Below, piece by piece: positions 1 to 23,127 of a stretch of 23,411 nucleotides of DNA. A program made the position numbers and the translations under genes. The stretch spans positions 1-23,411 of the forward strand of contig CAVPNL010000023.1 of NCBI GenBank assembly GCA_963706575.1. Reading direction: 5' to 3'. Numbering within the stretch: position 1 is the stretch's first letter; each line of letters opens with the position of its first letter. Origin of the DNA: an uncultured delta proteobacterium (GTDB lineage Bacteria > Desulfobacterota > Desulfobacteria > Desulfobacterales > JAHEIW01). The notes beneath the pieces are model-generated. The model was not told the DNA's origin. It searched no databases and was given only the letters and a program-made list of their open reading frames with translations.

Positions 1-1
1 G

Positions 2-439
2 AACGATGCGATGGTAACCCGTACAGCGGCAGAGGTTTCCTTTGATATGTTCTCTAATTTGATCTTCCGATGGCGAAGGATATTTATTTAAAAGATCTTT
101 GGCCATCAGAACCATTCCGGGCGTACAATAGCCGCACTGAATGGCGGCCGTGTCTAAAAATGCCTCCTGGATCGGGTCAAGGGTCCCATCCGGCGCAGCC
201 ACGCCTTCAATGGTCAGAATATCCGCACCGTCAACCGCCAGGGCCAGGGTCAGGCAGCTTAGAACCGGCTCCCCGTTGACGAGCACCGTACAGCCGCCGC
301 ATTGGCCGGTGCCGCAGCCGTATTTGGTGCCGGTCAGCTCGACCTCGTTTCTCAACAGATTCATCAGCAGTGTATTGGGCGCCACTAAAAATTCGCAGGG
401 CTCGCCATTGACCCTCAGCTGTATGCGCTGTTTTTGCAT
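2..439 (-). CDS. (2Fe-2S)-binding small subunit of xanthine dehydrogenase/CoxS family, 3' end runs off the window
   Basis: Not in the ORF track; translated by hand from ATG at 439: MQKQRIQLRVNGE...GTKYGCGTGQCGGCTV...SC...QCGYCTPG...GNLCRCTGY, the two canonical [2Fe-2S] motifs. The ATG overlaps the TAA of the upstream FAD subunit (TAATG). Confidence 0.93.
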   Translation of the reverse strand, partial: MQKQRIQLRVNGEPCEFLVAPNTLLMNLLRNEVELTGTKYGCGTGQCGGCTVLVNGEPVLSCLTLALAVDGADILTIEGVAAPDGTLDPIQEAFLDTAAIQCGYCTPGMVLMAKDLLNKYPSPSEDQIREHIKGNLCRCTGYHRIV

Positions 440-1326
440 TATCTCTTCCCTCCGGCCCGCTGCCAGGCCATATCGAAAACATCTTTAAATATTACCGCTG
501 CCACCTGTCTGCGATAGGTCTCGCTGGAGCGCACATCGCTGATAGGCCGAATTTCAGCTGAAACGCTTGCGGCGGCTTCATCCAGTAAGGTAGAATCAAT
601 TTGCTTGCCGCTTAATAATTCTTCCGCCCCCTTCACTCGCATAGGCACCGGGGCAACGGCCCCAAGGGCAATCCGGCAAGAGACACACCGGTCGGCATCA
701 CGCTGCAGGGCCACCGCACAGCTCAATTTTGAAATATCGGCTGCCACGCGAGCGACCTTCAAAAAAGCGCTGCCCTGATGATCCTCGCCCGGCGTAATGT
801 GGATTTCAGTCATGATTTCGTTGGCAGTCATAACCGCCGCATAGGGGCCGGTGATAAAATCCTCAACGTCCAGGGTGCGGCTGCCCTCCGGGCTTGCCAG
901 GGTAACGCGCCCATTTAAAACCAGCAGCGGCGGCACCGAATCGGCGGCCGGAGAAGCGGTGCAAAGGTTTCCGCCGAGGGTGCCCATATTCATGACCTGA
1001 ACTTTGCCGATCGAACGCAGGGCATCATGCAGAGCCGCATACCTTGGGTCCCGGGCGCAGGCCTGCTTTACGTCGCGCAGCCGGGCGCATGCGCCGATGT
1101 TCAGGCCGTCGTTGTCTTCATTGATATCGCTCAACCCTGAAATTTTCATCAGGGTGACCAAATGATTCGGAGCAATCTTTTCGTATTTGAGCTGCGGCAC
1201 CACATCGGTCCCACCGGCGATCACTTTGGCAGCATCGCCGTATTCAGCCAGCAACTCAAATGCCGCTGCCAGGCTGGCCGGCCGGTGGTAATCAAACTCC
1301 TGTGTCAGGATTTTCGTGTTTACCAT
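439..1326 (-). CDS. FAD-binding medium subunit of xanthine dehydrogenase/CoxM family
   Basis: Motifs FDYHRP, IAGGTD, GTLGGNL..ASPAAD, PISDVRSS..YR. Start moved from 1374 to ATG 1326 (MVNTKILTQEFDY), which fits the family length. Overlaps the large subunit 3' end by 35 nt. Confidence 0.9.
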   Translation of the reverse strand: MVNTKILTQEFDYHRPASLAAAFELLAEYGDAAKVIAGGTDVVPQLKYEKIAPNHLVTLMKISGLSDINEDNDGLNIGACARLRDVKQACARDPRYAALHDALRSIGKVQVMNMGTLGGNLCTASPAADSVPPLLVLNGRVTLASPEGSRTLDVEDFITGPYAAVMTANEIMTEIHITPGEDHQGSAFLKVARVAADISKLSCAVALQRDADRCVSCRIALGAVAPVPMRVKGAEELLSGKQIDSTLLDEAAASVSAEIRPISDVRSSETYRRQVAAVIFKDVFDMAWQRAGGKR

Positions 1327-3685
1327 GATCGTCTTCTTCAATTTGGGATTTCTGTTTAAGTGCCGCAAGGACACGTTCAGGCGTTATCGGCGCCGCTTTA
1401 AAGCGAATGCCCACCGCGTTGTAGACCGCATTGGCCACCGCTCCTGCGGTGGCGTTGTTGGCAGCCTCGCCGATTCCCTTGGCGCCGAAGGGGCCTGAGG
1501 GCTCATAGGTGTTGGCAAAAAAGGTGGAGATATCTTCAAGCGACGGCATATCTTGAGAGGTAAACATCTTATAATCGGTAAAAAATCCACCGCAGGTCAG
1601 TTCACCGGTTTGCGGATCGTAATCGGTGTCTTCCAGTAAGGCCAGCCCGACCCCGCGGCAAAGTCCGCCCTCCAGCTGGCCGGCGGCAAGATCGGGGTTG
1701 ATCACCGTACCGGCATCAACAGCGGCAACCGCTCTGGTGGGCCGGATTCGACCGGTCAGCGTATCGACTTCGACTTCAATAAAATTGGTCACAAAACACG
1801 GCGGGCAGTTGACCTGGCGATGGCTGACCACGCCGAGAATCGTGCCCCAGCCTTTAAGTTGAGCCATTTTGGCCACTTCACCAATGGAAATGTTTTTCGC
1901 CAGTGTGCCGGGTAAATAAATGATGCCCTGACCGCTGCCCTCTTCGGGATAAATTCTAAGTGCCTCCGGATTCACTTCAATTAAGCGTGAGGCAAATTCA
2001 AACAACTTTTTTTTGGCTTTTTGGGCGGCTCTCTGCAGGCTGGCGCCGCCGCAATATACGCCCCGGGTCGCATGGGTACACACATCGTAACCGGTCGAAC
2101 GGGTGTCGGAAGGCGAAATACCGACGTTGTCCAGCGGCACGCCCAGTTCTTCGGCAACGATTTTGGCTCCGGCCTCAAGGGTTCCACCGCCATGACACAT
2201 TAAAGCCGTTGAGCAATCAACGGATCCGTCTTCGTTGATTTTAACCATTGCGGTAGAGTAGTCGATGACCTCTCCGGGGGTGGGCGCACCGGTTCCGGAA
2301 GTATGAAAACCGCGACCCACACCGATGCCCCGTCGAAATCTCTGGGTCTTAAGCTGAGGGATTAAGCGTTTTTCCCAGCCGATTATTTCTTTGCCCCGCA
2401 GCAGCATTTCCTCTACACCGCAACTGCGTATGACCGAACGGACCGTTGGCCCCTGCCCCCAGAATGTCTCACCGAGTCCCACGTAATTTTTCAAACGGAT
2501 ATCGATGGGATCGATCCCCAATTTTCCGGCGATGATATCCATCTGGGATTCAACTGCGAAAGAAACCTGCGGGTTGCCATAGCCTTGCATGGCGCAGGCC
2601 GGCGCCTTGTTGGTATAGACCGCGTTGCCCTCGAATTTTAAATGCGGCATGCGGTAGAGGGACACAAACCATCCTGCCATGCAGCCGAGCAGCGGGTATG
2701 CCTGTATATTGTGTCCTCCGATATCAACGACTGTTTTCAAATAGCCCGCCGTCAGAGTACCGTCGCGCTTGACGCCATATTTAAGACGTATAATGGTGGG
2801 ATACTTGCAATGATCATACATATCCTCTTCGCGTGTCAGCACCAGTTTGACCGGTTTCTGGGCCTTGAGGGCCAGCGCCACGCAGATCGCAACGGGTGTG
2901 TTCATCTGAATGCTGGAGCCGAAAGCGCCCCCAATGGGAACCCGGTGCACATTAACCTTGCTCAACGGGATGTTGAAAATGCGGCCCAGCAGCTGGCGGG
3001 TGTTGTGAATGGACTGGGTTGTGGGCCAGACCGTGATGCCGCCGTCCGCTTCCGGCCGGCATACCACCGCCTTGCTCTCCATCTGGCCGTGGTAAACCCG
3101 TCCGGTCTTAAATTCATTTTCCACCACCAGATCGGCCTCGGCAAAACCTTTCGCCACATCGCCTTCACCGACCTCTCTGAAACAGGCAATATTTTGTTGA
3201 ATGGGAAGGACTTTATCACCCAGCATGATGTCTTCATACAACACCGGTGCACTTTCTTTCATCGCTTCATAAGGATCGAAGACGGCGGGCAGTGGTTCAA
3301 ATTTTACGACAATACGCTTAAGTGCCTTATCGACCAGGGCTTCTGTTTTAGCGGCAACGGCAACAACCCCCTCTCCAACATGGCGTACCTTATCAGGTAA
3401 GACAGTGCGATCGCGATAGGTCTTTTCCGGGATACTGACCTGGCGCTCGTTGTATTTGATTTGGGGGATATCCTTATAGCTAATACATACGGCACCCAGT
3501 TTTTCCGCTTCACGCGTATCGATGGAGACAATTTTCGCATGGGGATAGGGGCTCCTGAGGACTCTGGCATGGAGCATATTGGGCAGGCTCACATCGGATA
3601 CGTATCGTTCTCTGCCGGTAACCCTTGCATAACCTTCTTTTCGCGGGGAAATCCGACCAATTGCATGAAAATTATTGTCATCCAT
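1292..3685 (-). CDS. Molybdopterin-binding large subunit, xanthine dehydrogenase/aldehyde oxidoreductase family
   Basis: 797 aa with LRSPYPHA, GGAFG, MQGYGNPQ, EVEVD..TG, DAG.VINP...GQ.EGG and GPFGAKGIGE (catalytic Glu). GGAG RBS upstream. Confidence 0.93.
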   Translation of the reverse strand: MDDNNFHAIGRISPRKEGYARVTGRERYVSDVSLPNMLHARVLRSPYPHAKIVSIDTREAEKLGAVCISYKDIPQIKYNERQVSIPEKTYRDRTVLPDKVRHVGEGVVAVAAKTEALVDKALKRIVVKFEPLPAVFDPYEAMKESAPVLYEDIMLGDKVLPIQQNIACFREVGEGDVAKGFAEADLVVENEFKTGRVYHGQMESKAVVCRPEADGGITVWPTTQSIHNTRQLLGRIFNIPLSKVNVHRVPIGGAFGSSIQMNTPVAICVALALKAQKPVKLVLTREEDMYDHCKYPTIIRLKYGVKRDGTLTAGYLKTVVDIGGHNIQAYPLLGCMAGWFVSLYRMPHLKFEGNAVYTNKAPACAMQGYGNPQVSFAVESQMDIIAGKLGIDPIDIRLKNYVGLGETFWGQGPTVRSVIRSCGVEEMLLRGKEIIGWEKRLIPQLKTQRFRRGIGVGRGFHTSGTGAPTPGEVIDYSTAMVKINEDGSVDCSTALMCHGGGTLEAGAKIVAEELGVPLDNVGISPSDTRSTGYDVCTHATRGVYCGGASLQRAAQKAKKKLFEFASRLIEVNPEALRIYPEEGSGQGIIYLPGTLAKNISIGEVAKMAQLKGWGTILGVVSHRQVNCPPCFVTNFIEVEVDTLTGRIRPTRAVAAVDAGTVINPDLAAGQLEGGLCRGVGLALLEDTDYDPQTGELTCGGFFTDYKMFTSQDMPSLEDISTFFANTYEPSGPFGAKGIGEAANNATAGAVANAVYNAVGIRFKAAPITPERVLAALKQKSQIEEDDHGKHENPDTGV

Positions 3686-3710: not shown

Positions 3711-4277
3711 CTACCAAACCGGCGGCGTCCATACAAACAGGACTTCTGCGGTTTCTTTCCCGGTGTTGACCCAATGATGAGGAATGTCGCCATTAAAATA
3801 GAGCGTGTCGCCTTCCTGGAGGAGAAGACGTTCCGTACCGATTTCAAATTCGACCTCCCCTTTTAGCACCAGCACAAATTCCTCTGAGCCTTTCGGGTGC
3901 TCCATGGTCCCGGACTTATCCAGCATCCCTCCCGGTTTGATCACGGATAGGAGCGGCTGCATCTTTTTCTGGAATACACCTTTTGTCAGGAGCTGACTGA
4001 CAACTTCCCCATCCGGGTAATGAATGGTTCGACGATCTGTTTTTCGCAGACACCAGTTGCCCTGTTCCCCCCGGTTATTCCCCCGAAACAGATCGACAAC
4101 ATGCACTTCCAATGCATCGGCAAGACGTCCGAGCATCGATACCGATGGCGCACCGGTCCCTTTCTCAAGTTGAGATATATAGGACTTGGTGCATCCGGCA
4201 ATCCGGGCAAGTTGCTCCAGAGTAAACCGTTTTTGTTGTCTCAGCTCCTTGAGTCTTTTGGGGAATTCGTCATCCAT
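3711..4277 (-). CDS. XRE-family HTH transcriptional regulator with C-terminal cupin domain (PuuR-like)
   Basis: N-terminal RLKELRQQKRFTLEQLA...KSYISQLEKG...PS helix-turn-helix; C-terminal H..SEEFVLVLKG...GDTLYF....PH cupin. Confidence 0.92.
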   Translation of the reverse strand: MDDEFPKRLKELRQQKRFTLEQLARIAGCTKSYISQLEKGTGAPSVSMLGRLADALEVHVVDLFRGNNRGEQGNWCLRKTDRRTIHYPDGEVVSQLLTKGVFQKKMQPLLSVIKPGGMLDKSGTMEHPKGSEEFVLVLKGEVEFEIGTERLLLQEGDTLYFNGDIPHHWVNTGKETAEVLFVWTPPVW

Positions 4278-4347: not shown

Positions 4348-4373
4348 CCCAATTGGGTTAAAAACCAATTGGG
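4348..4373. promoter_or_regulatory. Twin CCAATTGG palindromes in the regulator 5' region, candidate operator or hairpin
   Basis: cccaattggg-ttaaaaa-ccaattggg: two self-complementary boxes that also pair with each other. Confidence 0.3.
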
Positions 4374-4472: not shown

Positions 4473-4782
4473 TAAAAATTTAAAATCGGATTCATATCTA
4501 ATATCACCACTTAATTATATTTAAAAACAAATAGTTAGTTAAAAGCGGCAACTTATATCATAATACCTGAAATTGTTTTGCGGCTTTAATCAATAACCGG
4601 GTTTATCAAATACCCGGATTTGGGTTAAATATATGTTGACTCCCGAATATTGCATTGTTAGGTATTTTCAGCTATTGCAGAATATGGATTTTTACTCCGT
4701 TCGGTTCCGATGGCTTTCAGGCAAAAAATCCGAACATCGGGTGTCCATTATGCATTAACCTCAAAATAAAAAGGAGATGAAA

Positions 4783-4989
4783 ATGTCAGATTGGTTTCCG
4801 TTGGATTTGAAGATTGCAAAACCGCATCCCGGGCATGAAGCACACCTGTGTATGGCCCACAGTGTCGGGTTTGTTGAACATAATCTTCAGGAATATAAAA
4901 AGTTTGTTCGCAATGCCAAATTTGTCTGCAAAAATTGCGGCCGCGTCGCCGCCAAAGCGGAAAATCTATGCCAACCTGAAACGTTGTGA
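4783..4989 (+). CDS. Small Cys/His-rich hypothetical protein, probable metal binder
   Basis: AAGGAG RBS at 4771-4776, 6 nt before ATG 4783 (ATG 4777 abuts the RBS). Sequence has HPGHEAHLCMAH and CKNCGRVA....LCQP. Confidence 0.75.
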   Translation: MSDWFPLDLKIAKPHPGHEAHLCMAHSVGFVEHNLQEYKKFVRNAKFVCKNCGRVAAKAENLCQPETL

Positions 4990-5021: not shown

Positions 5022-6311
5022 ATGCGCGAAAATGCCCTTAGCGATATAAAAGCCTATGAAATCATTGATAACCGTGGAATGCCGACCATACGGGTGGCGG
5101 TTTGTATTGACAACCAATTCTGGGGTCACGCCGATGTGCCCAGTGGATCCTCTACCGGCTCTTATGAGGCCGTGGAATTGAGAGACGGGGATGCCCGCTA
5201 CCGCGGCAAAGGCGTCCTCAAGGCCATTCAGAACATTCATGACATTATCCTGCCCGAACTCCGCGGCAAAGATGCCGGCAATCTACACGCCATCGACACC
5301 CGGATGCTTGAGCTGGATGGGACCGAAAACAAATCAAATCTGGGCGGAAACGCCATCCTGGGTGTCTCTCTCGCCGTTGCCCAGGCAGCGGCAAATGCCT
5401 GTGGTAAACCCCTTTATAAATATCTGAATGCGGATGCCCGTGTGTTACCGGTCCCGCAGGCCTGTCTGTTAAATGGCGGTGTACACGCCGGCAACGACCT
5501 CGACATTCAGGAATTCTGCGTGATGCCGACCGGTGCCCGAACATTTGCAGAGTCCGTTCAGATTCTTTGCGAAACCTTTTATAGCCTCAAAGACATTTTA
5601 CTTGATAAGTTGGGAAAGTCCGCCACCAACAGCGGTGAGGACGGTGGATTTGCCCCGCCGATATCCTCTACCCGCCAGGCAATGGACCTTTTATGTGAAG
5701 CCATCCAACGCTCCGGTTATACGGACAAAGTCGTTTATGGGCTGGATTTCGCGGCAAGCGGATACTACCATTCAGAAACGGACACCTATGCGTTTGAGGG
5801 TTCCCAAAAAACACAGGATGAAATGATTGCGTTCATAAAAGAGCTTCTAGCCGAATACCCATCCATCGTATCCATTGAAGACCCCCTGCATGAAAATGAT
5901 TTAAAAGGCATGCAGATATTAACCGATGCATTCAGCAAACACCTCATCATTGGCGATGACATGTTCGCCACCAACATAAAGCGCATTCAAAAAGGCCTGG
6001 AGCAAGGGGCGGGTAACGCCACGCTTTGCAAGGTCAATCAGATTGGAACCTTGACGGAAGCTTCGGAGACCGTCGATTTTGCGCGCCGGAACAATTTTGC
6101 GGTGGTCATGTCCGAGCGATCCGGCGAGACCGAGGACAGTGTGCTGTCCGATATCAGTGTTGCCTTTAATGCGGGGCTGTTTAAAACCGGCGGTATCCGC
6201 GGCTCCGACAGGGGAGCGAACTACAACCGCTTCATAGAGATCGAACGCGAGCTGGGTCCTTCCGCTGATTATGCCGGGACCCGATATGGCGAGGTAACGA
6301 TTTCCGGGTGA
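5022..6311 (+). CDS. Enolase (phosphopyruvate hydratase) family protein, divergent paralogue
   Basis: VPSGSSTG, EAVELRDGD.RY.GKGV, NGGVHA, QEF, SIEDP, GDD, KVNQIGTLTE, RSGETED, KTG. GAAAGGA RBS. Catalytic motifs are altered (see findings), so the eno symbol is withheld. Confidence 0.93.
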   Translation: MRENALSDIKAYEIIDNRGMPTIRVAVCIDNQFWGHADVPSGSSTGSYEAVELRDGDARYRGKGVLKAIQNIHDIILPELRGKDAGNLHAIDTRMLELDGTENKSNLGGNAILGVSLAVAQAAANACGKPLYKYLNADARVLPVPQACLLNGGVHAGNDLDIQEFCVMPTGARTFAESVQILCETFYSLKDILLDKLGKSATNSGEDGGFAPPISSTRQAMDLLCEAIQRSGYTDKVVYGLDFAASGYYHSETDTYAFEGSQKTQDEMIAFIKELLAEYPSIVSIEDPLHENDLKGMQILTDAFSKHLIIGDDMFATNIKRIQKGLEQGAGNATLCKVNQIGTLTEASETVDFARRNNFAVVMSERSGETEDSVLSDISVAFNAGLFKTGGIRGSDRGANYNRFIEIERELGPSADYAGTRYGEVTISG

Positions 6312-6346
6312 AATTTGTATGGACTGATTTCAAAGGAGACATACAG

Positions 6347-7717
6347 TTGATCAAAAATCGTGCTGAATTACTTTCCCATGGATTTGTCGAAGGCCGGCAG
6401 AAGGTATTAGACATTGCCGAACATACCCTAAAGCATGTCGATCCGCTGGCTGCGGTAAAAAACCATGTAAAATTAGACGGCAGCAGACTTCAGGTCGGCG
6501 AAGATGATTTTGATCTGAATAAGGTCAATAAGATTTATGCAATTGGGGGCGGCAAGGCAACCTATCCCCTGGCAATTGGATTAGAAGAAATTTTGGGCGA
6601 TCGCATCAGCGACGGGTTTATTGCCGTCAAAAAAGGGCAGAAGCAGCCCTTTTGCGAAACCATGGGGACCCTATCAAGAATACAGGTGGCCGAATCCGCG
6701 CACCCCATACCGGATGAAACCAGCCTGGAAGCCGGTAAGGCCGTATGGCAGATTGCTGAAAAGGCCGGTCGGAACGATATGGTTTTTTGTTTGATGTCCG
6801 GCGGCGTTTCGGCCCAGTGCATCTATCCGGTTGAGGGCATCTCCTTAAATGACAAGGTCAGCATTAATCAATTGCTGGTACACAGCGGCGCAGATGTCAC
6901 TGAAATCATGACGGTCAGGGGACACCTTTCGCGCATCAAAGGTGGCCGACTGGCGCCGCAGATGCTCCCGGCGACCGTCGTCAGCCTGACGGTTTCGGAT
7001 GAAAAGACCGACTCCATGAAATGGAATACCGATTGGGCCAGCCCGGATTCCACCACCCTGGCGGATGCTGAAAGGGTTCTTAAAAAATATGGTTTGTGGC
7101 AAAAGGTATCCGAGCAGGTACGTGATTATCTTTCCCATCCGACGCCGGATAAAGAGACGCCCAAATCATTTTCAAATCAACCTTTATATTACTGTATGGT
7201 GGTAAAGACACGCGCGCTCTGGGAAGGGGCCGCGCAAAGGGCGAAAGCGCTCGGTTTAACCCCGCTGTTACTGACAACCCTGCTAAACGGCGAAAGCCGG
7301 GAAGTCGGACGCACGATCGCTTCGATTGCAAACGAAATTAAATTGTCCGGCAATCCGGCCCGCCCACCGTGTGCGCTGATCGCCACCGGTGAAACCGCCG
7401 TGCGAATCCGGGGGGCTGTTCGTGGCCAGGGTGGTGCAAACCAGGAACTGGCAGCTGGCGCCTGTCTGGATTTAAACGAAACAAGTCCTATCGCGATCTG
7501 CGCATTGGATACGGACGGCACCGATGGCCCGACGTCACTGGCCGGTGCGCTTACGGATGGGTCAACGCCAAAAGCGGCGGCCCAAAAGGGATACGATTTG
7601 TTTCAAAATCTCATGGAACACGATGTCGCAACCGTGCTGAAGGCCACCGGAGATGCGGTCATCACCGGCCCGACCGGCACAAACGTAAACGATCTGGTGA
7701 TTTGCGTAATTTTATAG
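6347..7717 (+). CDS. Glycerate 2-kinase-like protein (DUF4147 + MOFRL domains)
   Basis: GGGKA, HPIPD, SGG.SA, HLS.IKGG.L, GESRE, NQE, DTDGTDGPT, TGTNVND. TTG start at 6347 preferred (AAAGGAG at 6332-6338, MIKNRAELL); GTG 6308 is the alternative. Confidence 0.88.
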   Translation: MIKNRAELLSHGFVEGRQKVLDIAEHTLKHVDPLAAVKNHVKLDGSRLQVGEDDFDLNKVNKIYAIGGGKATYPLAIGLEEILGDRISDGFIAVKKGQKQPFCETMGTLSRIQVAESAHPIPDETSLEAGKAVWQIAEKAGRNDMVFCLMSGGVSAQCIYPVEGISLNDKVSINQLLVHSGADVTEIMTVRGHLSRIKGGRLAPQMLPATVVSLTVSDEKTDSMKWNTDWASPDSTTLADAERVLKKYGLWQKVSEQVRDYLSHPTPDKETPKSFSNQPLYYCMVVKTRALWEGAAQRAKALGLTPLLLTTLLNGESREVGRTIASIANEIKLSGNPARPPCALIATGETAVRIRGAVRGQGGANQELAAGACLDLNETSPIAICALDTDGTDGPTSLAGALTDGSTPKAAAQKGYDLFQNLMEHDVATVLKATGDAVITGPTGTNVNDLVICVIL

Positions 7718-7744
7718 GTGTATATATTGAAAGGCAAAACATCG

Positions 7745-9010
7745 ATGATGGATTTTCCGCACATGATGCGTATCAGACAAAGGTTTGATGATAGCGCTCT
7801 AGACGATATCCCCGGGGAAATTGCCAGGCAACTGGCGAACTTAAAGCTGGAATCTTCTGTTAAAAAAGGGCAGACGGTTGCGGTAGCCTGCAGCAGTCGC
7901 GGGCTAGCCAATTATGCTGTTATCGTCAAGGCCGTCGTCTCTTTTCTCAAACAATTAAAATTGGAACCCTTTCTCATTCCGGCAATGGGAAGCCATGGCG
8001 CTGCGACGGCCGCCGGACAAAAGCGTGTACTCGAACATTTGGGAATTGATGAAAAAGAAATCGCTGCGCCGATTCGATCCTCCCTTGAAATCGTGCAGAT
8101 TGGTGAGACCGAGGACCACATCCCGGTCTATCTTGACCGGCTGGCATCTGAAGCAGATTATATCGTTCTGATTAACCGCATTAAGAAGCACACCGAGTTC
8201 GAACACGAATTTGAAAGCGGCTTGCTCAAAATGATGGCCATCGGCCTGGGCAAGCAAGAAGGCGCCGCCACCTATCACGAGGCCATGCTGACCTATGGTT
8301 ACCCCGGCGTCATCCTGGCCGTCGCCCGTAAAGTGATGCAGCATGCGAATCTGTTATTCGGCGTGGGAACTGTGGAAAACGGGTATGGGCAAACCGCCCG
8401 TATCGGTGTCGGGCTGAAAGAAAACATTGAAGAAATGGAAAAAGAATTGCTCACATCCGCCAAAGCCTACGCACCGTCCCTGCCTTTTGACGAAGCCGAC
8501 ATTATCCTGATCGATGAAATGGGAAAAGAAATCAGTGGTACCGGCTTTGACACGAAGGTGGTTGGACGGATTGGCCTGCCGCTGGTGACGCCAGAACCGG
8601 AACGCCCCAGAATAAAACGCATTGTCGTAAGTGATTTAACGGAAAGCTCGGAGGGAAATGCCGTGGGGGTCGGTATCGCCGATATCATTACCCGGCGCCT
8701 GTTCGACAAAATTGACATGGATGCACTCAACATGAACACCATCACCGGTGTTTGCCCGGAAATGGGCAAAATCCCGCTGACCGTCAAAAATGATTATGAG
8801 GCCATTGAAATTGCCATAAAATGTGTCGGTTTGATCCCCAGGGAAAAATTGAAGATCATGCGTATCAAGAACACAGCGCTGTTAAGTGAAGTTGAAATCT
8901 CACAGGCTTACGAAGAGGAAGTCGTAAAGCGCGATGATCTTGAGGTGGTTACCCCCAAAAAAGAGATGGATTTTGATCCTGCCGGTTATCTGAAACCCTT
9001 TCTCGGATGA
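7745..9010 (+). CDS. LarA-like (lactate racemase N-terminal domain / DUF2088-type) putative 2-hydroxy-acid racemase/epimerase
   Basis: SRGLAN, PAMGSHG.AT..GQ, NRIK.HT.F, ESGL.KM..IGLGK..GA, GK.ISG.G.D, GNA.G.G.AD. Start at ATG 7745 or 7748 after a GAAAGG RBS. Confidence 0.75.
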   Translation: MMDFPHMMRIRQRFDDSALDDIPGEIARQLANLKLESSVKKGQTVAVACSSRGLANYAVIVKAVVSFLKQLKLEPFLIPAMGSHGAATAAGQKRVLEHLGIDEKEIAAPIRSSLEIVQIGETEDHIPVYLDRLASEADYIVLINRIKKHTEFEHEFESGLLKMMAIGLGKQEGAATYHEAMLTYGYPGVILAVARKVMQHANLLFGVGTVENGYGQTARIGVGLKENIEEMEKELLTSAKAYAPSLPFDEADIILIDEMGKEISGTGFDTKVVGRIGLPLVTPEPERPRIKRIVVSDLTESSEGNAVGVGIADIITRRLFDKIDMDALNMNTITGVCPEMGKIPLTVKNDYEAIEIAIKCVGLIPREKLKIMRIKNTALLSEVEISQAYEEEVVKRDDLEVVTPKKEMDFDPAGYLKPFLG

Positions 9011-9034: not shown

Positions 9035-9188
9035 CTGTGTCACAATTCAAAAACACATCTGATTTCTAACCGTCCTGCCGGACTTGATCCGGCATCCAGA
9101 ACTGTAAAACTTTGAAAAATCAATGGATTCCGGGTCAAGCCCGGAATGACAAAAGGCTCATTTATGTCGCTTGCGAAATCCGACACAG
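9035..9188. repeat. REP/MITE-like element: two inverted hairpin units inside short terminal inverted repeats
   Basis: ctgtgtc (9035-9041) ... gacacag (9182-9188) enclose gtcctgccggacttgatccggcatccag (9072-9099) and tggattccgggtcaagcccggaatgac (9124-9150), which are imperfect reverse complements of each other. Confidence 0.75.
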
Positions 9189-9222
9189 TCTGATCACGCC
9201 TAGATCAGACGCAATACCGGGA

Positions 9223-11603: not shown

Positions 11604-11691
11604 TGTCTTTCAGCGGAGTATTCAACAGGGTGAATGTTCTCCGGGAAAAATAATTTTGGGGTGTGGTAACTTCATCTTGCCTGAATTGAGC

Positions 11692-11791
11692 GATTGTCGA
11701 GGTTGCCGCAGATGCAAGGAAAATGTCGTTCCGCTATAGTTCTCTATGCGGGACGGCATTTGACACAGCAGGTGCGGTAAGATCGGCAATC
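11692..11791 (+). other. Long imperfect hairpin (structured RNA or repeat element)
   Basis: Nested stems gattgtcga/tcggcaatc, ttgccgca/tgcggtaa and aaatgtcgttccgc/gcgggacggcattt; all non-Watson-Crick pairs in these stems are G-U on the + strand. Confidence 0.6.
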
Positions 11792-11798
11792 CCGAAGG

Positions 11799-11872
11799 GT
11801 TTTAAATTTTAAAAATGAAAACCGATAGAATTCCTTAAGAATGAAGAATTTTCCCTTTTTAAAATTTAAAAC
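11799..11872. repeat. Perfect 17-bp AT-rich inverted repeat
   Basis: gttttaaattttaaaaa (11799-11815) and tttttaaaatttaaaac (11856-11872). Confidence 0.65.
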
Positions 11873-11886
11873 GCTCAATTTAGGAC

Positions 11887-13585: not shown

Positions 13586-13971
13586 TAAATAATTTCGTGC
13601 CCTTCGGCGGTTAAGGCATCGATCGCTTTTGCAAGATCTTTTTCTTTAACCATGAAATAGTCTGTATCAAACGTCGATATGACAAATACCGAAACGCCGT
13701 TTTTGGCCAGCGGTTGGGTTAAGGAGAAAATAATGCCAATTTCAGAAAAGTCTAATAGCCCCTGAACCTTAAAACATCGCCAGCCGGTTTCGCTGGTTGT
13801 TCCCGGGGCAAGGCGGGCCTCCGGGCAAACAAGGGTCAATTCCGCTTCGGTGCGGGTGAGCGAATAGAAGCCGACCTCACCAATCCAGTCCGGAAGCGGT
13901 GCCGTGGGTTCGAAGCGGCAAACGGCCATCCGTTCGGGGAGTATTTTCAGTGAACGCTTTTTGAGCTTCAT
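13585..13971 (-). CDS. Small ACT-domain protein (ACT_7-like)
   Basis: SLTRTEAELTLVC, GWRCFKV.G.LDF...GI, PLA..GVSVFVISTFDTDY..VK. Confidence 0.88.
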   Translation of the reverse strand: MKLKKRSLKILPERMAVCRFEPTAPLPDWIGEVGFYSLTRTEAELTLVCPEARLAPGTTSETGWRCFKVQGLLDFSEIGIIFSLTQPLAKNGVSVFVISTFDTDYFMVKEKDLAKAIDALTAEGHEII

Positions 13972-14020
13972 ATTATATTTCAGTGAATTTGTTAAAGACG
14001 GCGTTCAGTGGGATTGCGAA

Positions 14021-14067
14021 TCTATATATGTTGTATTTGATTAAAAAAAACATACAATATATAGTAA
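14021..14067. promoter_or_regulatory. Tandem NrdR-box-like sites
   Basis: Cores ATATATGTTG (14024-14033) and CAATATATAG (14055-14064) versus consensus CwAyATrTwG; starts are 31 bp apart. Confidence 0.55.
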
Positions 14068-14085
14068 CAAATATCAAAGGCGAAA

Positions 14086-15666
14086 ATGAATATAATGAAA
14101 TCCGCTAGAATAAATATGCTGCTGGGGGCATTAAGCGGCCTGCTGTTGACCGGCGCATTTCCCAAAATCGGGCTGGACTGGCTGGTTTGGTTTGCGCTGG
14201 TACCGCTGCTGGTGGCAATTGCGAATCTTTCTATTAAACAAAGCTTTCGGATCGGTTTTATCGCCGGCCTGGTTCATTATCTGACACTGCTCTACTGGGT
14301 GGTACCCGTCATGCGAACATACGGGTATCTTCCCCTGTACCTGAGTGTTGTGATTCTGTTTCTCTTTGCAGCGGTTCTGGCATTTTTCCCGGCTGTTTTT
14401 TCGATGACCCTTGCCGCGGTCGGCATCACGCCTTTGCGGTGTCTGATCACAATGCCCTTGCTATGGGTGGCGCTGGAATATATTCGAACCTTTATTTTCA
14501 CCGGGTTTCCATGGGCATTGCTGGGGCACTCGCAATATCTGCGGCACCATTTGATTCAAATCGCCGATCTGTTTGGCGCATATGGGGTTTCCTTTTTAAT
14601 TGTCCTGGGTAATACGGCTGTTTTTCTGGTCATCACGTATATCAGCCGAAAAACGTGGCACAGCAGACCCATTTCAAAGCCGCTGGTGCTTGGCGCAACC
14701 GCGCTGTTTGCCATAGGATTCCTTCTCAGCTGGATCTATGGCGCCTGGCGCATTAAGGCAACCGACCATCTGATTGCCGCAGCACCAACTGCGCGGGTTG
14801 CCGTCATCCAGGGCAATATCGATCAGTCGGAAAAATGGGACCCTGTGTTTCAAGGCGCGACCATCAAGACCTACCACCGGTTATCGCTTGCAGCAAAATC
14901 AGAAAATCCCGATCTGATCGTCTGGCCCGAATCCGCCACACCGTTTTTTTTGTTTTACGACAAGCGTCCGACGGAAAATGTGCTGGCCGGTATTGAACAG
15001 GCAAACAAGGATTTTCTCATCGGAAGCCCATCCTTTGTGCGTCAGAATAAAAAGGTCACCTATCACAACAGCGCCTACCTGATTATTCCCGGAACCAAAA
15101 ACATCAGCAAATACGACAAAGCCCACCTGGTCCCTTATGGCGAATATGTGCCCTTTAAACGCTGGCTGCCCTTTTTAGGCAAGCTTGTCGCCCAGGTGGG
15201 TGATTTCCGCCCGGGAACACCCGGCAAGACCCTGCCCTGGAAAGAGTATGCCCTGGGCGTGCAAATCTGTTACGAAATTATTTTTCCCGGTCTTTCCCGG
15301 GCGATGGTAAAAAACGATGCCGTCTTGCTGATCAACATCACCAACGATGCGTGGTTCGGCACCACCAGCGGGCCTTACCAGCATTTTTCCATGGCCATAT
15401 TTCGCGCGGTGGAAAACCGGCGGGCACTCGCGCGGGCAGCCAATACGGGCATCAGCGGCTTCATCGACCCCGTCGGCCGGATTTTAACCTCTACTCCGCT
15501 GCTCGAGGAAGCCGCGGTCACCCGGACGCTGCCGTTGATTCACAAAAAAACATTTTACACCCGTTTCGGGGATCTGATGGCGCTGGCTTGCCTGGCAGGC
15601 ACAATTTTTGTTATACTATTTGAGTTTGGCAAATCCGCGCTTAAATTTCAAAAAAAGCCCCGGTAG
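14086..15666 (+). CDS. lnt: Apolipoprotein N-acyltransferase
   Basis: Hydrophobic N-terminal region, FTGFPW, QGNI, nitrilase-fold triad WPE / YDK.HLVPYGE / ICYE, TNDAWFG, RAVE.RR...RAANTGIS. Confidence 0.96.
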   Translation: MNIMKSARINMLLGALSGLLLTGAFPKIGLDWLVWFALVPLLVAIANLSIKQSFRIGFIAGLVHYLTLLYWVVPVMRTYGYLPLYLSVVILFLFAAVLAFFPAVFSMTLAAVGITPLRCLITMPLLWVALEYIRTFIFTGFPWALLGHSQYLRHHLIQIADLFGAYGVSFLIVLGNTAVFLVITYISRKTWHSRPISKPLVLGATALFAIGFLLSWIYGAWRIKATDHLIAAAPTARVAVIQGNIDQSEKWDPVFQGATIKTYHRLSLAAKSENPDLIVWPESATPFFLFYDKRPTENVLAGIEQANKDFLIGSPSFVRQNKKVTYHNSAYLIIPGTKNISKYDKAHLVPYGEYVPFKRWLPFLGKLVAQVGDFRPGTPGKTLPWKEYALGVQICYEIIFPGLSRAMVKNDAVLLINITNDAWFGTTSGPYQHFSMAIFRAVENRRALARAANTGISGFIDPVGRILTSTPLLEEAAVTRTLPLIHKKTFYTRFGDLMALACLAGTIFVILFEFGKSALKFQKKPR

Positions 15667-15757
15667 ATTTATCCTAAGGGGTTTTGGGGCAGCAACAAAA
15701 GAGATGGGACGCACTCGAGTTTATTGAAATATGCTTTTTTTGAAGGAGGTAAATAAA

Positions 15758-16859
15758 ATGTCTGTGGAACTTAAACAAAACTTAAAGGATCTTCAACAAA
15801 AACTGGTAGACCTGCGGGGCTATCTTTGACCTTGCGGGTAAAGAAAACCGCCTGGCTGAAATCGAACAGGTTATCGCCAAAGATGCATTCTGGGACAATC
15901 CGGAAGAAACCAAACCCATCCTGCAAGAGCGCACGTCACTTTCAAATAAAATTGAAAAATTCAAAAAGCTGACGGACGATCTGGAAGAAAATGAAATTCT
16001 GCTGGATCTGGCAGTTGATGAATCTGATGAAGAAACCCTTGCCGAAGTCACAAAGCAAATTGCCGGCCTGGATCAGAAAATTGCAGCCCTATCGCTGGAG
16101 CTGATGCTCGACGGTGAAGACGATGGTAAAAACGCCATCGTATCCATCAATGCCGGCGCCGGCGGAACCGAAGCCCAGGATTGGGCTGAAATGTTATTTC
16201 GGATGTATACCCGCTGGGTGGAGCGCCGCGGTTATCAAATCGAGCTGATTGATTTCCAGCCCGGAGATGAGGCCGGGATAAAAAGTGTGACCTTCACCGC
16301 CGGCGGCGAAAATGCGTACGGGTATCTAAAATCGGAAATCGGGGTGCACCGCTTGGTCAGAATATCACCGTTCAACGCCAGCGGAAAACGCCATACCTCT
16401 TTTGCGTCCGTATTCGTCTATCCCGAAGTGGACCAGGAAATCGTGGTGGACATTGAAGACAAAGACCTGCGAATCGACGTATTCCGGGCCAGTGGCGCCG
16501 GCGGTCAGCATGTCAACAAAACCAGCAGCGCCGTGCGCATCACCCATCTTCCCAGCGGTATCGTTGTGCAATGCCAGCAGGAAAAATCCCAGCACCGTAA
16601 TAAAGATATGGCTTTAAAGGTATTGAAAGCCCGGCTTTACCAGACTGAAAAACAAAAGCAGGAGGATAAGCTGCAGGAGGTTCACGACGGCAAAGATGAC
16701 ATTGCCTGGGGCAGTCAGATCCGCTCCTATGTCCTGCATCCCTATCAGATGGTAAAGGATCACCGCATCAATATGGATATCGGAAACGTCAATGATGTGC
16801 TGGACGGCGGTATCGATCCATTTATCGAGGGGGTGCTGCTGGCCAAAAAGCACAAATAA
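15758..16859 (+). CDS. prfB: Peptide chain release factor 2, programmed +1 frameshift at codon 23/24
   Basis: AAGGAGGT RBS and ATG 15758; CGG GGC TAT CTT TGA C at 15815-15830; the +1 frame (GAC 15828) is continuous with the track ORF containing SPF and GGQ motifs; about 366 aa. Confidence 0.97.
15815..15830 (+). promoter_or_regulatory. RF2 autoregulatory frameshift site
   Basis: Internal SD-like CGGGG followed by TAT CTT TGA C. Confidence 0.93.
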
Positions 16860-16879
16860 TTTCACTTCGTTCAATGATC

Positions 16880-16902
16880 GTGCGGCCTGTCAGCCGCACT
16901 TT
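16880..16902 (+). terminator. GC hairpin after prfB, possible weak intrinsic terminator
   Basis: gtgcggc-ctgtca-gccgcac followed by only ttt. Confidence 0.35.
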
Positions 16903-16977
16903 AAGAGCGGTCTTTCAGACCTCGAGGAGCGTTGCTTCGGAACTTGAAGCGCTAAAACTAAACTCATCCGAACCAAT

Positions 16978-17040
16978 ATGGCGGCAAAATGCCGCTCCCA
17001 TTCTCAAAATATTATGTGGGAGTGGCTTGCAGCCACGAAT
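16978..17040. repeat. Inverted pair of GTRG-type REP-like palindromes
   Basis: Minus strand ATGGGAGCGGCATTTTGCCGCCAT (16978-17001) and plus strand GTGGGAGTGGCTTGCAGCCACGAAT (17016-17040); the stems covary (GCGGC/GCCGC vs GTGGC/GCCAC). Confidence 0.65.
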
Positions 17041-17100
17041 CAAAAACGCGATCTGCTAAGCGGATAACTTTTTTTCCAAAAAAGCAGCAACGGCCAGCCC

Positions 17101-17172
17101 GTCATGACGTGTCGTTTTCCGCCATGAATTGTCCTCTTAGAGCCATGAAGGGTCGTTTGCCGCCATGAACTG
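17101..17172. repeat. Degenerate tandem repeat of ~20.5-bp period
   Basis: G(T/C)CATGA at 17101, 17121, 17142, 17162; gtcgttttccgccatgaattg vs gtcgtttgccgccatgaactg. Confidence 0.6.
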
Positions 17173-17230
17173 GCAACACACAAAGTCGCCGCAGCGCATA
17201 GTTCATAGCGCATAGCCATTATACAAAAGT

Positions 17231-17270
17231 AAAAAGCCGGACAGATAACAAGCCTGTCCGGCTTTCATTT
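17231..17270 (-). terminator. Intrinsic terminator of nfnAB, probably bidirectional
   Basis: aaagccggacag (17233-17244) / ctgtccggcttt (17254-17265) 12-bp stem with A/T tracts on both sides, between convergent transcription units. Confidence 0.8.
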
Positions 17271-17329
17271 GTTTATTGATTTAGACAAAAAGTGATTGCG
17301 CAAAAGGGTCGTTTCTGAACAGAAACCGA

Positions 17330-18751
17330 CTACCAGCCGAGCGTCAGAAAATCATGCATCGAATTGGCCGCTATTCTCCCGGCGCCCATTGCCAGTATGA
17401 CAGTTGCCGAACCGGTTACAATGTCGCCGCCGGCCCACACCCCTTTTTTGGTGGTTTTGGCAGTCTTGTCATCCACATCGATGTAGCCCCATTTATTTAA
17501 ACTCAAGCCCTCGGTGGATTGGGTCAGGATGGGATTGGCCCCGGTGCCCACAGCCACAATCACCAGATCACACTCCAGTTCAAATTCTGAGCCCTCAATC
17601 GGAACGGGTCGACGCCGCCCGGAGGCATCCGGTTCGCCCAGTTCCATTTTCAGGCATTGCATCCCGATCACGCGGCCTTTATCATCTCCAATAAATTTCG
17701 TTGGCGCCGCCAGAAAAAAGAACTCGACCCCTTCTTCCTCGGCGTGGTGAACTTCTGCGCCCCTTGCCGGCACCTCAGCCCTTGAACGTCGATAAACGAT
17801 GCGGGAGTTCTCCGCGCCCAAACGCAAAGCGGTGCGGGCGGAGTCCATCGCCACATTTCCGGCACCGAGGGTAACCACATTTTTCCCCTTAATAATGGGC
17901 GTATCATACTCAGGGAAGAGGTAAGCCTTCATCAGATTCGAGCGCGTCAGGTATTCATTGGCAGAATAGATGCCGATAAGATTTTTCCCGGGAACATCCA
18001 ACAGGACCGGTAGGCCGGCGCCAACCCCGATAAAAACGGCCTCATATCCTTCCTCAAAAAGCTCTTCGATCGTGACGGTTCTCCCGACCACCTGATTGCA
18101 TTCAACCTTAACACCCAGTCTTTCAAGAAAATTGACTTCCTGCGCCACAATATCTTTCGGGAGCCGAAATTCGGGAATACCATATACCAGCACGCCGCCC
18201 GACTTGTGAAATGCTTCAAAAACCGTTACCTCATGCCCTTTGGCAATCAAATCACCGGCAACGGTCAAGCCGGCTGGCCCGGAACCCACCACGGCCACTT
18301 TTTTGCCGGTGGGATCCGCTTTCGGCGGTAAGGCACCGGTGCCGTTTTCTCTTTCCCAATCGGCGACAAATCGTTCCAGATTGCCGATAGCGACCGGCTC
18401 CCCTTTTTTGCCGACGATACACAGGCCTTCGCACTGGATTTCCTGGGGGCACACCCGTCCGCAAACCGCCGGCAGGCTATTTTTCTGCCAGATATGTCGA
18501 ATGGATTCGGTAAATTTTTCTTCTTTTATCAGTTGGATAAAGCCCGGTATATCAATCTCGACGGGGCAGCCGGCCACACACCCCGGCTTTTTGCATTGCA
18601 GACACCTTTGGGCCTCTTTAATCGCTGTTTCCGGACTATAGCCGAGCGGAACCTCATCAAAATTTTTCGCTCGAACCTTGGGTTCCTGCTCCGCCATGGG
18701 CTGCCGGGGAATCTTTTCTCTTTTCTCTTTTTTCGTCTCTTTTTCCGCCAT
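17330..18751 (-). CDS. nfnB: NADH-dependent reduced ferredoxin:NADP+ oxidoreductase large subunit (GltD-like)
   Basis: RCLQCKKPGCVAGCP, CGRVCPQEIQCE, GSGPAG, YGIPEFRLP, GAGNVAMD, YRRS, AGGDIVTG.ATVILA. Follows nfnA; GGAGGA RBS before ATG 18751. Confidence 0.88.
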   Translation of the reverse strand: MAEKETKKEKREKIPRQPMAEQEPKVRAKNFDEVPLGYSPETAIKEAQRCLQCKKPGCVAGCPVEIDIPGFIQLIKEEKFTESIRHIWQKNSLPAVCGRVCPQEIQCEGLCIVGKKGEPVAIGNLERFVADWERENGTGALPPKADPTGKKVAVVGSGPAGLTVAGDLIAKGHEVTVFEAFHKSGGVLVYGIPEFRLPKDIVAQEVNFLERLGVKVECNQVVGRTVTIEELFEEGYEAVFIGVGAGLPVLLDVPGKNLIGIYSANEYLTRSNLMKAYLFPEYDTPIIKGKNVVTLGAGNVAMDSARTALRLGAENSRIVYRRSRAEVPARGAEVHHAEEEGVEFFFLAAPTKFIGDDKGRVIGMQCLKMELGEPDASGRRRPVPIEGSEFELECDLVIVAVGTGANPILTQSTEGLSLNKWGYIDVDDKTAKTTKKGVWAGGDIVTGSATVILAMGAGRIAANSMHDFLTLGW

Positions 18752-18860
18752 ATTATCCTCCGCAAACAAAATTAAACTTGAGTAATTCAGTCCAACCGAT
18801 GATCGTGTGATTGTGTGATTAGGTGAAAAATTTTGCCTGTCAAAAAATTTTTTCAGAAAT

Positions 18861-19691
18861 TTATGAATCCATTATACAAAATTCTTCATAGCACTGTTTC
18901 TCATTTTCACAATAGGACTGTAAACGGAGCATGAGTTCGTCATAATCTACCTTGTGCCCATCAAATTCAGGCCCGTCAACACAGGCAAACTTGGTCTGCC
19001 CGCCGACGGAGACACGGCATCCGCCGCACATGCCGGTGCCATCCACCATAATCGGATTGAGGCTGACCAGCGTGGGCACATCATATTCTTTGGTCATTAA
19101 GGACACGAATTTCATCATCGGAACCGGTCCGATGGCCACGGCTTGCTGAGTTTCTCCTTTTTCCAGCACCTCCTTTAAGACATCGGTTACGAAACCGTGG
19201 TGTCCGTAAGAGCCGTCGTCGGTACAGACATGCAGTTCATGGGATGCAGCCTTCATGCGATCTTCAAGAATCAGCAGGTCTTTGGTCCGCGCTCCAATAA
19301 TACAGGTCACATGGTTGCCGATTTCCTTCAGTGCCCGGGTGATTGGATGCAACACCGCGATTCCGGTACCGCCACCCACACAGACTACATTGCCGACTTT
19401 TTCAATATGGGTTGCCTTCCCTAAGGGACCGATCACATCCTGATAGCCGTCACCGACCTGCAGGGTCTTAAAAAGCGCGGTCGACTTGCCAACCACCTGA
19501 TAGATGACGGTGACGGTTCCTTTTTCAGCGTCCGTTTCGGCCATGGTCAACGGTATGCGTTCACCGGTTTCATTGGCCTTCAGGATCACAAATTGACCGG
19601 GCTTGGCCTTGCGGGCGATCTTGGGTGCTTCAATATCGTTTAGCACCACAGTTCCATCCGACATCTCTTCTCTTTTCACAATTTTAAACAT
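18861..19691 (-). CDS. nfnA: NADH-dependent reduced ferredoxin:NADP+ oxidoreductase small subunit (PyrK-like)
   Basis: PGQFVI, GERIPLT, GPLG, GGGTG, IGPVPMM, DGTGMCGGCRV...CVDGPEFD [2Fe-2S] motif. GGAGG RBS before ATG 19691 (MFKIV). Confidence 0.88.
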   Translation of the reverse strand: MFKIVKREEMSDGTVVLNDIEAPKIARKAKPGQFVILKANETGERIPLTMAETDAEKGTVTVIYQVVGKSTALFKTLQVGDGYQDVIGPLGKATHIEKVGNVVCVGGGTGIAVLHPITRALKEIGNHVTCIIGARTKDLLILEDRMKAASHELHVCTDDGSYGHHGFVTDVLKEVLEKGETQQAVAIGPVPMMKFVSLMTKEYDVPTLVSLNPIMVDGTGMCGGCRVSVGGQTKFACVDGPEFDGHKVDYDELMLRLQSYCENEKQCYEEFCIMDS

Positions 19692-19905
19692 GGAAAACCT
19701 CCAGACCGTTATTTCGCCGGCGTGATCGTTCACCGACGATTCGGCTAATTCGAGCCGAAGGGAGTTATATTGTCAGAAACAGGGCTTGAAATCAAGGTAA
19801 AATCTTGATCATTTAATGGTTCATTGATATAGCTTTGCGGCTAAACAAGTTGATGTTTGAACCCGAATTGATCGTTCAATATTAAGCCTGTCAGGGAGTC
19901 CATCA

Positions 19906-20685
19906 ATGAAAATATTCGACAGCCACTGTCATCTGGATGATAAGACTTATCGGAAAGATATTGCCCGGGTGATTGAGCGCGCCCATCAAAACGGTGTAGC
20001 GCGAATGATGACGGTGGGGGTAAACAAAAAAACAGCAGTTCGGGCAGTGTCCCTGGCAGAATCCCATTCGGAGCTATATGCCTCGGTGGGATTTCATCCG
20101 CACGATGCCAGCCGGTGCAGTGCAGCGAAACTTGATTTTCTGGTAACAGCGGCTGAAAACCCGAAGGTCAGGGCCTGGGGGGAAATCGGGTTGGATTACA
20201 ACCGCATGTACTCGCCTCGCGAGGATCAGGAAAGATGGTTTATTCGGCAGCTGCAAATTGCCGCTGAACTGAACCTTCCCGTCATTTTCCATGAACGGGA
20301 TACCAATGGACGTTTTCTTGAGATTCTTAAAACCGATTTCAAAAGCGAAAGCGCCGGTGTCGTTCATTGTTTCAGCGGCACGGCACCGGAACTGGAACAT
20401 TATCTTGATCTGGGTCTGTACATCGGGATTACCGGTATCCTGACCCTGAGGACACGAGGCGCGGACCTGTGTGAAATGGTCCGCCAAATTCCAGCGAATC
20501 GAATGGTTGTGGAGACCGATGCGCCCTATCTGACGCCCGCTCCCGAAAAATACCACACGCGCCGCAACGAACCCGCCTTTGTCAAATCAGTCCTGCTGAA
20601 GCTGGCCGAAGTCCGTGAGGAAGATCCCGCTCAGCTGGCGCAGACCATCTGGGACAACACGAACCGATTGTATCGGATCGATTAG
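19906..20685 (+). CDS. tatD: TatD-family metal-dependent hydrolase/DNase
   Basis: DSHCH, GFHPH, GEIGLDY, IFH.R, VVHCF, ETDAPYL, RNEP. Confidence 0.93.
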   Translation: MKIFDSHCHLDDKTYRKDIARVIERAHQNGVARMMTVGVNKKTAVRAVSLAESHSELYASVGFHPHDASRCSAAKLDFLVTAAENPKVRAWGEIGLDYNRMYSPREDQERWFIRQLQIAAELNLPVIFHERDTNGRFLEILKTDFKSESAGVVHCFSGTAPELEHYLDLGLYIGITGILTLRTRGADLCEMVRQIPANRMVVETDAPYLTPAPEKYHTRRNEPAFVKSVLLKLAEVREEDPAQLAQTIWDNTNRLYRID

Positions 20686-20716
20686 CCACATACCACAGAA
20701 AAATAAAGCCAATGTA

Positions 20717-20816: not shown

Positions 20817-20851
20817 TTAATAAATTCAAAGAATTCTGCCTAAGCTGTAAT

Positions 20852-22042: not shown

Positions 22043-22047
22043 TTTTC

Positions 22048-23099: not shown

Positions 23100-23127
23100 T
23101 CGCTACCTCTCCATATTGATTTATTAT

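Follow-up and report, generated by a model that had tools for sequence, protein, structure and literature searches.

An enolase paralogue with a remodelled active site, encoded in a kinase-racemase cassette, is a predicted 2-phospho-3-X-lactate lyase

The stretch of DNA analysed here (the window, 23,411 nucleotides from an uncultured delta proteobacterium) encodes at 5022..6311 (+) a 429-amino-acid enolase paralogue, whose product is a predicted 2-phospho-3-X-lactate lyase. The two genes that follow encode a paralogue of class II (MOFRL) glycerate 2-kinases and a LarA-family protein that its sequence predicts to be a 2-hydroxy-acid racemase. The simplest reading of a racemase and a 2-kinase beside an enolase whose base and phosphate site are intact and whose C3 site is rebuilt is a pathway that converts a 3-substituted lactate to phosphoenolpyruvate (PEP). 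We consider it quite likely that 2-phosphoglycerate is not the main substrate of the paralogue. Our leading and still tentative reading, with a probability of roughly one in three, is that the three enzymes together convert an N-methylated 3-aminolactate to PEP and a methylamine.

Family assignment of the paralogue

In a profile search the paralogue scored 503 bits against TIGR01060, for which the curated cut-off is 300. Its only Pfam matches at E <= 0.001 were Enolase_N, Enolase_C and a weak MR_MLE_C; at the same threshold the Pfam profile of the methylaspartate ammonia-lyase (MAAL) family gave no match. The AF2 model (pLDDT 91) superposed on M. jannaschii MJ0232 (2pa6), the nearest solved structure at 50% identity, with a TM score of 0.95 and an rmsd of 1.5 Å, and a fold search with this model returned enolases only. 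Names were equally uniform, an ESM Atlas look-up of the paralogue giving generic enolase names only and the databases calling the proteins of its clade "enolase" or "phosphopyruvate hydratase". The host carries a second, canonical enolase on contig C4, 47% identical to the paralogue, with the motifs GDEGGFAP, SHRSGETED and KTGSLSRSDRVAKYNQ; the solved enolases that we aligned show the same canonical motifs. Since the general-acid Glu and the His of SHRS are both missing from the product of 5022..6311, we filed it as an enolase-family paralogue, set apart from canonical enolase, in what the clade alignment defines as the "ED" clade.

Remodelled active site

A codon check bore out the substitutions read in the initial annotation. 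GEDGGFAP stands in place of GDEGGFAP at 5637..5642 (+), where Asp (D207, codon 5640) replaces the general-acid Glu and Glu (E206, codon 5637) the Asp that precedes it. SERSGE stands in place of SHRSGE, with E365 at 6114..6116 (+) replacing the conserved His, a position that we take to be yeast His373, to which an active-site role is ascribed. The GSxxRSxRxAKYN segment is replaced by KTGGIRGSDRGANYN (K388-N402, 6183..6227, +), as the clade alignment also shows, and DNRGMPT is found for DSRGNPT (N17, M20). The residues listed there as retained, H155, E164, D242, E286-D287, D312-D313, K337 and R366-S367, are all present. With base Lys, Mg ligands and phosphate residues intact, the machinery for C2 deprotonation appears to be kept, as that annotation had argued.

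The accessible part of a study of M. tuberculosis enolase assigns Lys335 as the base, Glu204 as acting on the C3 hydroxyl and Asp241/Glu283/Asp310 with Ser42 to Mg, and further names His154, Glu163, Arg364 and Lys386 (PMC10619443). When this catalytic set, as given there, is matched by motif, every residue is kept in the paralogue except Glu204, which corresponds to D207.

Conservation and distribution of the clade

E206/D207 is present in 119 of the 120 best homologues (60-96% identity), the sole exception being a 703-amino-acid canonical match at 45% identity. The D/E swap is therefore not private to this genome and defines a conserved clade. Beside this alignment we used a set of 121 loci (40 from genomes, 80 retained from 132 metagenome matches, and the window), many of them short or near-duplicate. 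E206/D207 occurs in 121/121 of these, a biased count, as one search pattern included the ED motif, and the unbiased figure is the 119/120 of the homologue alignment. The His of SHRS is missing in all 118 loci readable at position 365, which holds Glu in 68, Val in 43 and Pro in 7 (3 unread), Glu marking the basal branches of a quick tree. The proposal that an H-to-E change defines the clade thus stands for the loss of His (118/118) and falls for the gain of Glu (68/121); Glu365 as a fixed acidic counter-charge had to be abandoned, the residue being Val or Pro in 50/118 readable loci.

The rest of the site is more constant. H155, E164, D242, E286, D312 and K337 are kept in 120-121 of the 121 loci, and no alternative to S44, R366 or K388 was seen in the 115-118 loci that extend over these positions. 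Within the KTGGIRGSDRGANYN segment K388 is kept, G391, G394 and G398 are near-invariant, and R393 and N400 are mostly kept, R393 being His in at least 14 loci. Elsewhere the clade has fixed further differences from the C4 copy (M147A, N148C/S, R394G, V398G, K400N), which mostly introduce smaller residues and presumably face the C3 side of the pocket.

The dN/dS of the paralogue is 0.07-0.11 (10 pairs, against 10 relatives), and the two diagnostic codons vary silently (E206, GAA 61/GAG 60; D207, GAC 83/GAT 38). The clade is held under purifying selection. It is also rare: a scan covering 185,579 species yielded 40 distinct loci. All named carriers are metagenome-assembled genomes (MAGs) of uncultured anaerobes, labelled Thermodesulfobacteriota, Chloroflexota (Dehalococcoidia), Myxococcota, Spirochaetota and, once, Pseudomonadota; no cultured carrier was found among the named members listed in a cluster look-up. 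In a quick tree of 67 rows (midpoint root, no bootstrap) the 60 clade rows form one group with an SH-aLRT of 99. The gene is accessory, being present in 3/40 relatives, and in a search of plasmids nothing matched at more than 60% identity. In 36/39 carrier genomes there is another enolase with a far higher score, recognised by score and not by its motifs, and glycolysis is therefore covered there. In the wider family, represented by 150 cluster representatives and locus L005, the base Lys is kept in all 151 sequences; 104 have the canonical DE/H/K residues, 29 lack the His, and only one, from this clade, has ED.

Kinase and racemase partners

The kinase gene (6308..7717, +; Pfam DUF4147 and MOFRL) begins where the enolase gene ends, the enolase stop codon overlapping or lying just before its start; its likely true start is TTG at 6347, after AGGAGA. 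Next comes the LarA gene (7718..9010, +), a nickel-pincer isomerase of group 22 with a likely start at ATG 7745 or 7748. A MOFRL kinase is found in 101/121 loci, in agreement with the earlier suggestion that the clade is tied to a dedicated kinase; LarA group 22 is found in 55/121 and a GntR regulator in 40/121.

Both kinase domains, DUF4147 and MOFRL, are present, and the protein agrees with the D-x-D-G-x-D-G consensus given in the accessible part of PMC2063504. It scores below the cut-offs of two NCBIfam glycerate-kinase models, both archaeal (202 vs 550 and 150 vs 670 bits). When aligned to 1x3l and 2b8n, it shows a WNxDW motif (7022-7036, +), that is, two Trp and an Asp, where the solved kinases show IASGP; all 85 clade kinases of nearly full length have N240, D242 and W243, and 83 of them have W239. 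From this motif we infer a cation-binding role. The Arg of GGRNQE, which we take to be Arg325 of T. maritima and important, is lost in 80/85 clade kinases, becoming Ala (as in the window) or Pro. P. horikoshii 1x3l has Pro there, and we dropped this loss as proof of a new substrate because 1x3l likewise lacks the Arg. A second MOFRL kinase of the host has canonical motifs and belongs to what looks like a sugar-phosphate gene cluster.

The LarA protein matches NF052515 with 487.9 bits (cut-off 400), and larB, larC and larE were found in the genome; a sequence search found no solved relative of it. According to the accessible part of PMC11770544, LarA homologues racemise many 2-hydroxy acids, glycerate included, and LarA enzymes epimerise 2,3-dihydroxybutyrates; the label "Group 22" does not occur in the main text of that paper, as far as accessible.

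Other features of the window

Upstream of the paralogue lie a 70-amino-acid Cys/His-rich protein (4777..4989, +; 7/121 loci, nearest relatives only), a divergent XRE-cupin regulator (3711..4277, -; 9/121) and a xanthine-dehydrogenase (XDH)-family complex with a molybdenum subunit (1292..3685, -; Pfam/NCBIfam; 11/121), an FAD subunit (439..1374, -; profile matches) and a 2Fe-2S subunit, which comes next at about 2-442 and is cut by the contig end. All three were considered as core parts of the system and rejected, being accessory and confined to the sub-lineage of the window. The 70-amino-acid protein has HxxHLC and CxxCGR-type motifs and a second copy on contig C15; Pfam and NCBIfam gave no match to it, and its Atlas look-alikes are unnamed clusters. 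In close relatives (L054, L056, L057; compare window 1-3685) two different XDH-family complexes stand in tandem upstream of the cassette; a search of genome G000 did not find the second complex (best matches about 34%), which was perhaps lost at the contig end.

A palindrome occupies 4348-4373 upstream of the operon, and the intergenic repeats at 9035-9192 and 11680-11885 have copies on several contigs. A promoter and terminator scan stayed at chance level. In 3/4 RNA runs the three genes are covered by contigs from relatives (mostly 85-99% alike), although such contigs cannot show transcription. Window 13688-23411 corresponds to C15:1-9723 at 98.9% over 9.7 kb with small gaps; the two are probably unmerged strain variants, and several other contig ends look duplicated.

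Genomic neighbourhood

Genes of methylamine metabolism recur around the paralogue. MttB lies near it in 34 of the 121 loci, and in 29 of the 65 with at least 8 kb of flank; URO-D/MtaA-type methyltransferases occur in 22 and 3 loci, corrinoid proteins in 11, MtbB in 6, GcvT-domain oxidoreductases in 6, MtmB in 2 and BCCT transporters in 2. Other recurrent neighbours are XDH-family subunits (11 loci), IlvD (8), 2-hydroxyacid dehydrogenases (3) and AFOR (2). A background of 3.3% taken from the genome of the window understates MttB-rich hosts, and the expectation was instead derived from per-genome MttB counts: MttB occurs in 14/41 genome loci against 2.26 expected, an enrichment that is overstated because the loci are related and many are near-duplicate. 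Many Desulfobacterales-type MAGs hold from 20 to over 29 MttB-family genes, and all 21 genomes of the same genus hold at least one.

An in-frame TAG was found in the MttB of 10 loci, all of one sub-lineage; the other MttB matches at E <= 1e-20 have no stop, and non-pyrrolysine MttB are the commonest methyl neighbours. At L063 (8144-9619, -) an MttB divergent to the enolase and ahead of two TAG-containing copies scores 585 against a cut-off of 525 for pyrrolysine trimethylamine methyltransferase, yet is open without TAG. Consumers of free amines occupy separate branches of the tree, namely TAG-containing MttB (10 loci), MtbB (6), MtmB (2) and a dehydrogenase at L097 that scores 558 bits as histamine dehydrogenase and 468 as trimethylamine dehydrogenase. 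No methylamine gene was recognised beside the paralogue in the Dehalococcoidia loci, at L039/L040 and L045 or within the window, and 3/39 carrier genomes gave no MttB match.

Given the overlap with C15, some 25 kb separate the cassette in the host from a methylamine island of about 100 kb with MttB copies, MtbB and pylS, the genes in between being housekeeping ones. This island (G000:C15:16000-122500) also holds sarcosine-oxidase-like genes, seven MttB in all (one with TAG), pyl genes, two GcvT-domain dehydrogenases and a glycyl-radical-type enzyme, several of these labels coming from sequence starts only.

Proposed pathway and alternatives

From these genes we infer the substrate and catalytic steps as follows. 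The substrate would be an N-methylated 3-aminolactate, either isoserine betaine or a form of it that has lost some of its methyl groups. Its C2 configuration would be set by the LarA racemase and its 2-hydroxyl phosphorylated by the kinase, after which the paralogue would abstract the C2 proton and expel a methylamine, leaving PEP. K337 would act as the base, two Mg ions would stabilise the enediolate, and E164, E206 and D207 could pair with the cationic C3 nitrogen in the room left by loss of the His and by the shorter side chain of the acid. Mono-, di- or trimethylamine released in this way would pass to the adjacent corrinoid methyltransferases; before this, non-pyrrolysine MttB copies may remove methyl groups from the substrate.

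We prefer C-N cleavage because the site is acidic, the kinase has gained two Trp and an Asp, and genes for the consumption of mono-, di- and trimethylamine are found in separate branches. The amine-type leaving group of the initial annotation gains from the MttB, MtbB, MtmB, corrinoid protein, amine dehydrogenase and BCCT neighbours and loses the constancy of Glu365. Several points tell against amine release. We know of no natural source of isoserine betaine, which is the weak point of this reading; position 365 is neutral in the 50/118 loci with Val or Pro; MttB islands gather many unrelated catabolic genes; the methylamine link is missing in the loci named above and in the carriers with no MttB match; the L097 dehydrogenase resembles histamine dehydrogenase more closely than trimethylamine dehydrogenase; and the invariant acid at 207 would suit a leaving group that needs a proton, an alcohol or water, at least equally well.

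The leaving group would be an alcohol if the substrate were a 3-O-substituted glycerate that derives from a betaine-lipid head group (DGTS, DGTA or DGCC) after deacylation: D207 would protonate the alkoxide, PEP and a betaine alcohol would be released, and MttB would demethylate the latter. Such ether cleavage fits the acid kept at 207 (121/121 loci, the biased count), the many clade-fixed changes to smaller residues, the prevalence of non-pyrrolysine MttB, the BCCT transporters in 2 loci and the aldehyde-oxidoreductase-type genes that flank some loci (XDH 11, AFOR 2). Oxidation of an sn-3 glycerol ether at sn-1 yields the L-acid, which would explain the racemase, and the kept acid and the racemase are accounted for better here than by amine release. 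However, neither an alcohol or aldehyde dehydrogenase nor an esterase is a constant neighbour, the clade is rare for so common a lipid (40 distinct loci in 185,579 species), a large head group would need a channel, and our literature search found no paper on such a route. We regard this alternative as possible but unlikely, and speak with the same reserve of its broader form, in which racemase, kinase and enolase would break the glycerol ether of marine betaine lipids independently of oxygen, within a wider radiation of kinase-coupled 2-phospho-3-X-lactate lyases.

Water would be lost if the paralogue were a dehydratase acting on a 2-phospho-2,3-dihydroxy acid of greater size (at least C4, perhaps N-methylated) to give a substituted phosphoenol-oxo acid, which we hold to be rather unlikely. 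Acid and base are both kept, and loss of the His would give room for a C3 substituent. IlvD-family dehydratases (8 loci), 2-hydroxyacid dehydrogenases (3 loci) and the UxaA/GarD-type dehydratases beside a sister module (L135) point the same way, as does the epimerisation of 2,3-dihydroxybutyrates by LarA enzymes described in the accessible part of PMC11770544. Nevertheless, no recurrent gene for using a substituted PEP accompanies the paralogue, IlvD is limited to two related branches, and with the acid shortened, hydroxide would leave poorly.

An ordinary enolase isozyme seems to us rather unlikely as well. In this reading glycerate, formed for instance from betaine by way of glycine and serine, would undergo racemisation by LarA and phosphorylation by the kinase and be converted to PEP, E206 perhaps reaching the C3 hydroxyl as the original Glu did. 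The reading would agree with a score far above the enolase equivalog cut-off, the nearly identical fold and the racemisation of glycerate by LarA homologues (PMC11770544, accessible part), and the Lys and DTDG motifs of the kinase are intact, its lost Arg also being Pro in 1x3l. Yet the host has a canonical enolase, as do 36/39 relatives judged by score, and a canonical-motif glycerate kinase besides; both cassette enzymes bear clade-fixed active-site changes; and the Glu204Ala mutant of the M. tuberculosis enzyme is non-functional, according to the accessible part of PMC10619443. One Dehalococcoidia genome (G062; L135, L136, L137) moreover holds three different kinase-plus-paralogue pairs, pointing to different substrates, together with a canonical-scoring enolase.

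Cleavage of 2-phospho-3-sulfolactate to PEP and sulfite, the reverse of ComA, which would feed sulfite respiration, appears improbable. Sulfite needs no acid catalyst as a leaving group, dsrA is present in the host and in 21/39 carrier genomes, and R393 is new in most members. Against this, the pocket gained acids, and a search of 8 Dehalococcoidia carriers found no dsrA. The catabolic markers of sulfolactate are SuyAB, TauE, HpsN, Xsc and ComA, and no such sulfonate gene was recognised among the 199 neighbour proteins scanned (cluster representatives and singletons near the gene), the sole TPP enzyme scoring 250-259 bits against Xsc cut-offs of 620-676. R393 as a sulfonate anchor was set aside as weak, the residue being His in at least 14 loci. 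Finally, a decaying or non-catalytic copy, to which the loss of two canonical catalytic-site residues might point, was rejected as most improbable given the dN/dS of 0.07-0.11, ED in 119/120 homologues, the invariant base and metal ligands and carriers under at least four phylum labels. The remaining probability belongs to substrates not listed here.

Related modules and known systems

The cassette is not the only pairing of its kind. The sister paralogues L131, L135, L136, L138 and L139 adjoin a kinase, while L140 does not; as in the cassette, an enolase with Lys and metal ligands stands beside a kinase, and L131 and L138 share LarA group 22 with it. Unlike the clade, these modules lack the ED swap and the WNxDW of the kinase, and the first His is also lost or changed. 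At L131 (7091-11054) and L138 the order reads enolase, kinase, LarA group 22 and IclR, with GDEGG kept, SERSG present and the first His missing. All 8 Dehalococcoidia carriers have four enolase matches each. Together, the sister modules suggest a larger set of mis-annotated lyases.

In a full-text literature search, with most subscription journals outside its scope, the cassette was undescribed, and an amine-releasing reaction was not found for any enolase in the literature searched; the chemistry of the paralogue is probably new. The enolase family is regarded as having a single reaction, and a cassette that expels an amine or an alcohol would be a new catabolic entry to PEP. If true, it would give sediment sulfate reducers a route to free methylamines or betaines, compounds for which they are reported to contend with methanogens (PMC8318568, accessible part).

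The kinase shares with the class II (MOFRL/GckA/TtuD) glycerate 2-kinases (2b8n, 1x3l) its domains, conserved Lys and DTDG motifs, and differs from them in WNxDW for IASGP, in Ala or Pro for the GGRNQE Arg (80/85) and in scores below the NCBIfam cut-offs. By analogy, the reaction class proposed for the paralogue is that of phosphosulfolactate synthase (ComA), which interconverts PEP plus a nucleophile with 2-phospho-3-X-lactate, X being sulfite; ComA belongs to another family and works in the biosynthetic direction with sulfite as X, whereas the cassette has no sulfonate context. Methylaspartate ammonia-lyase, also of the enolase superfamily, eliminates an amine, and its logic would be the same as that predicted here, a metal-assisted abstraction of the alpha proton followed by loss of the amine from the beta carbon, although the paralogue falls in the enolase subgroup, keeps the 2-phosphate site and does not match the MAAL profile. 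The closest comparison is with canonical enolase (EC 4.2.1.11; TIGR01060), with which the paralogue has in common the fold, the base Lys, the Mg ligands, the loop Ser, the equivalents of His159 and Glu168, the second Lys and the phosphate Arg-Ser. It differs in Asp for the general-acid Glu, in Glu, Val or Pro for the His of SHRS and in the rebuilt segment after KTG; and whereas canonical enolase is a glycolytic gene, the paralogue is an accessory gene in a kinase-racemase cassette.
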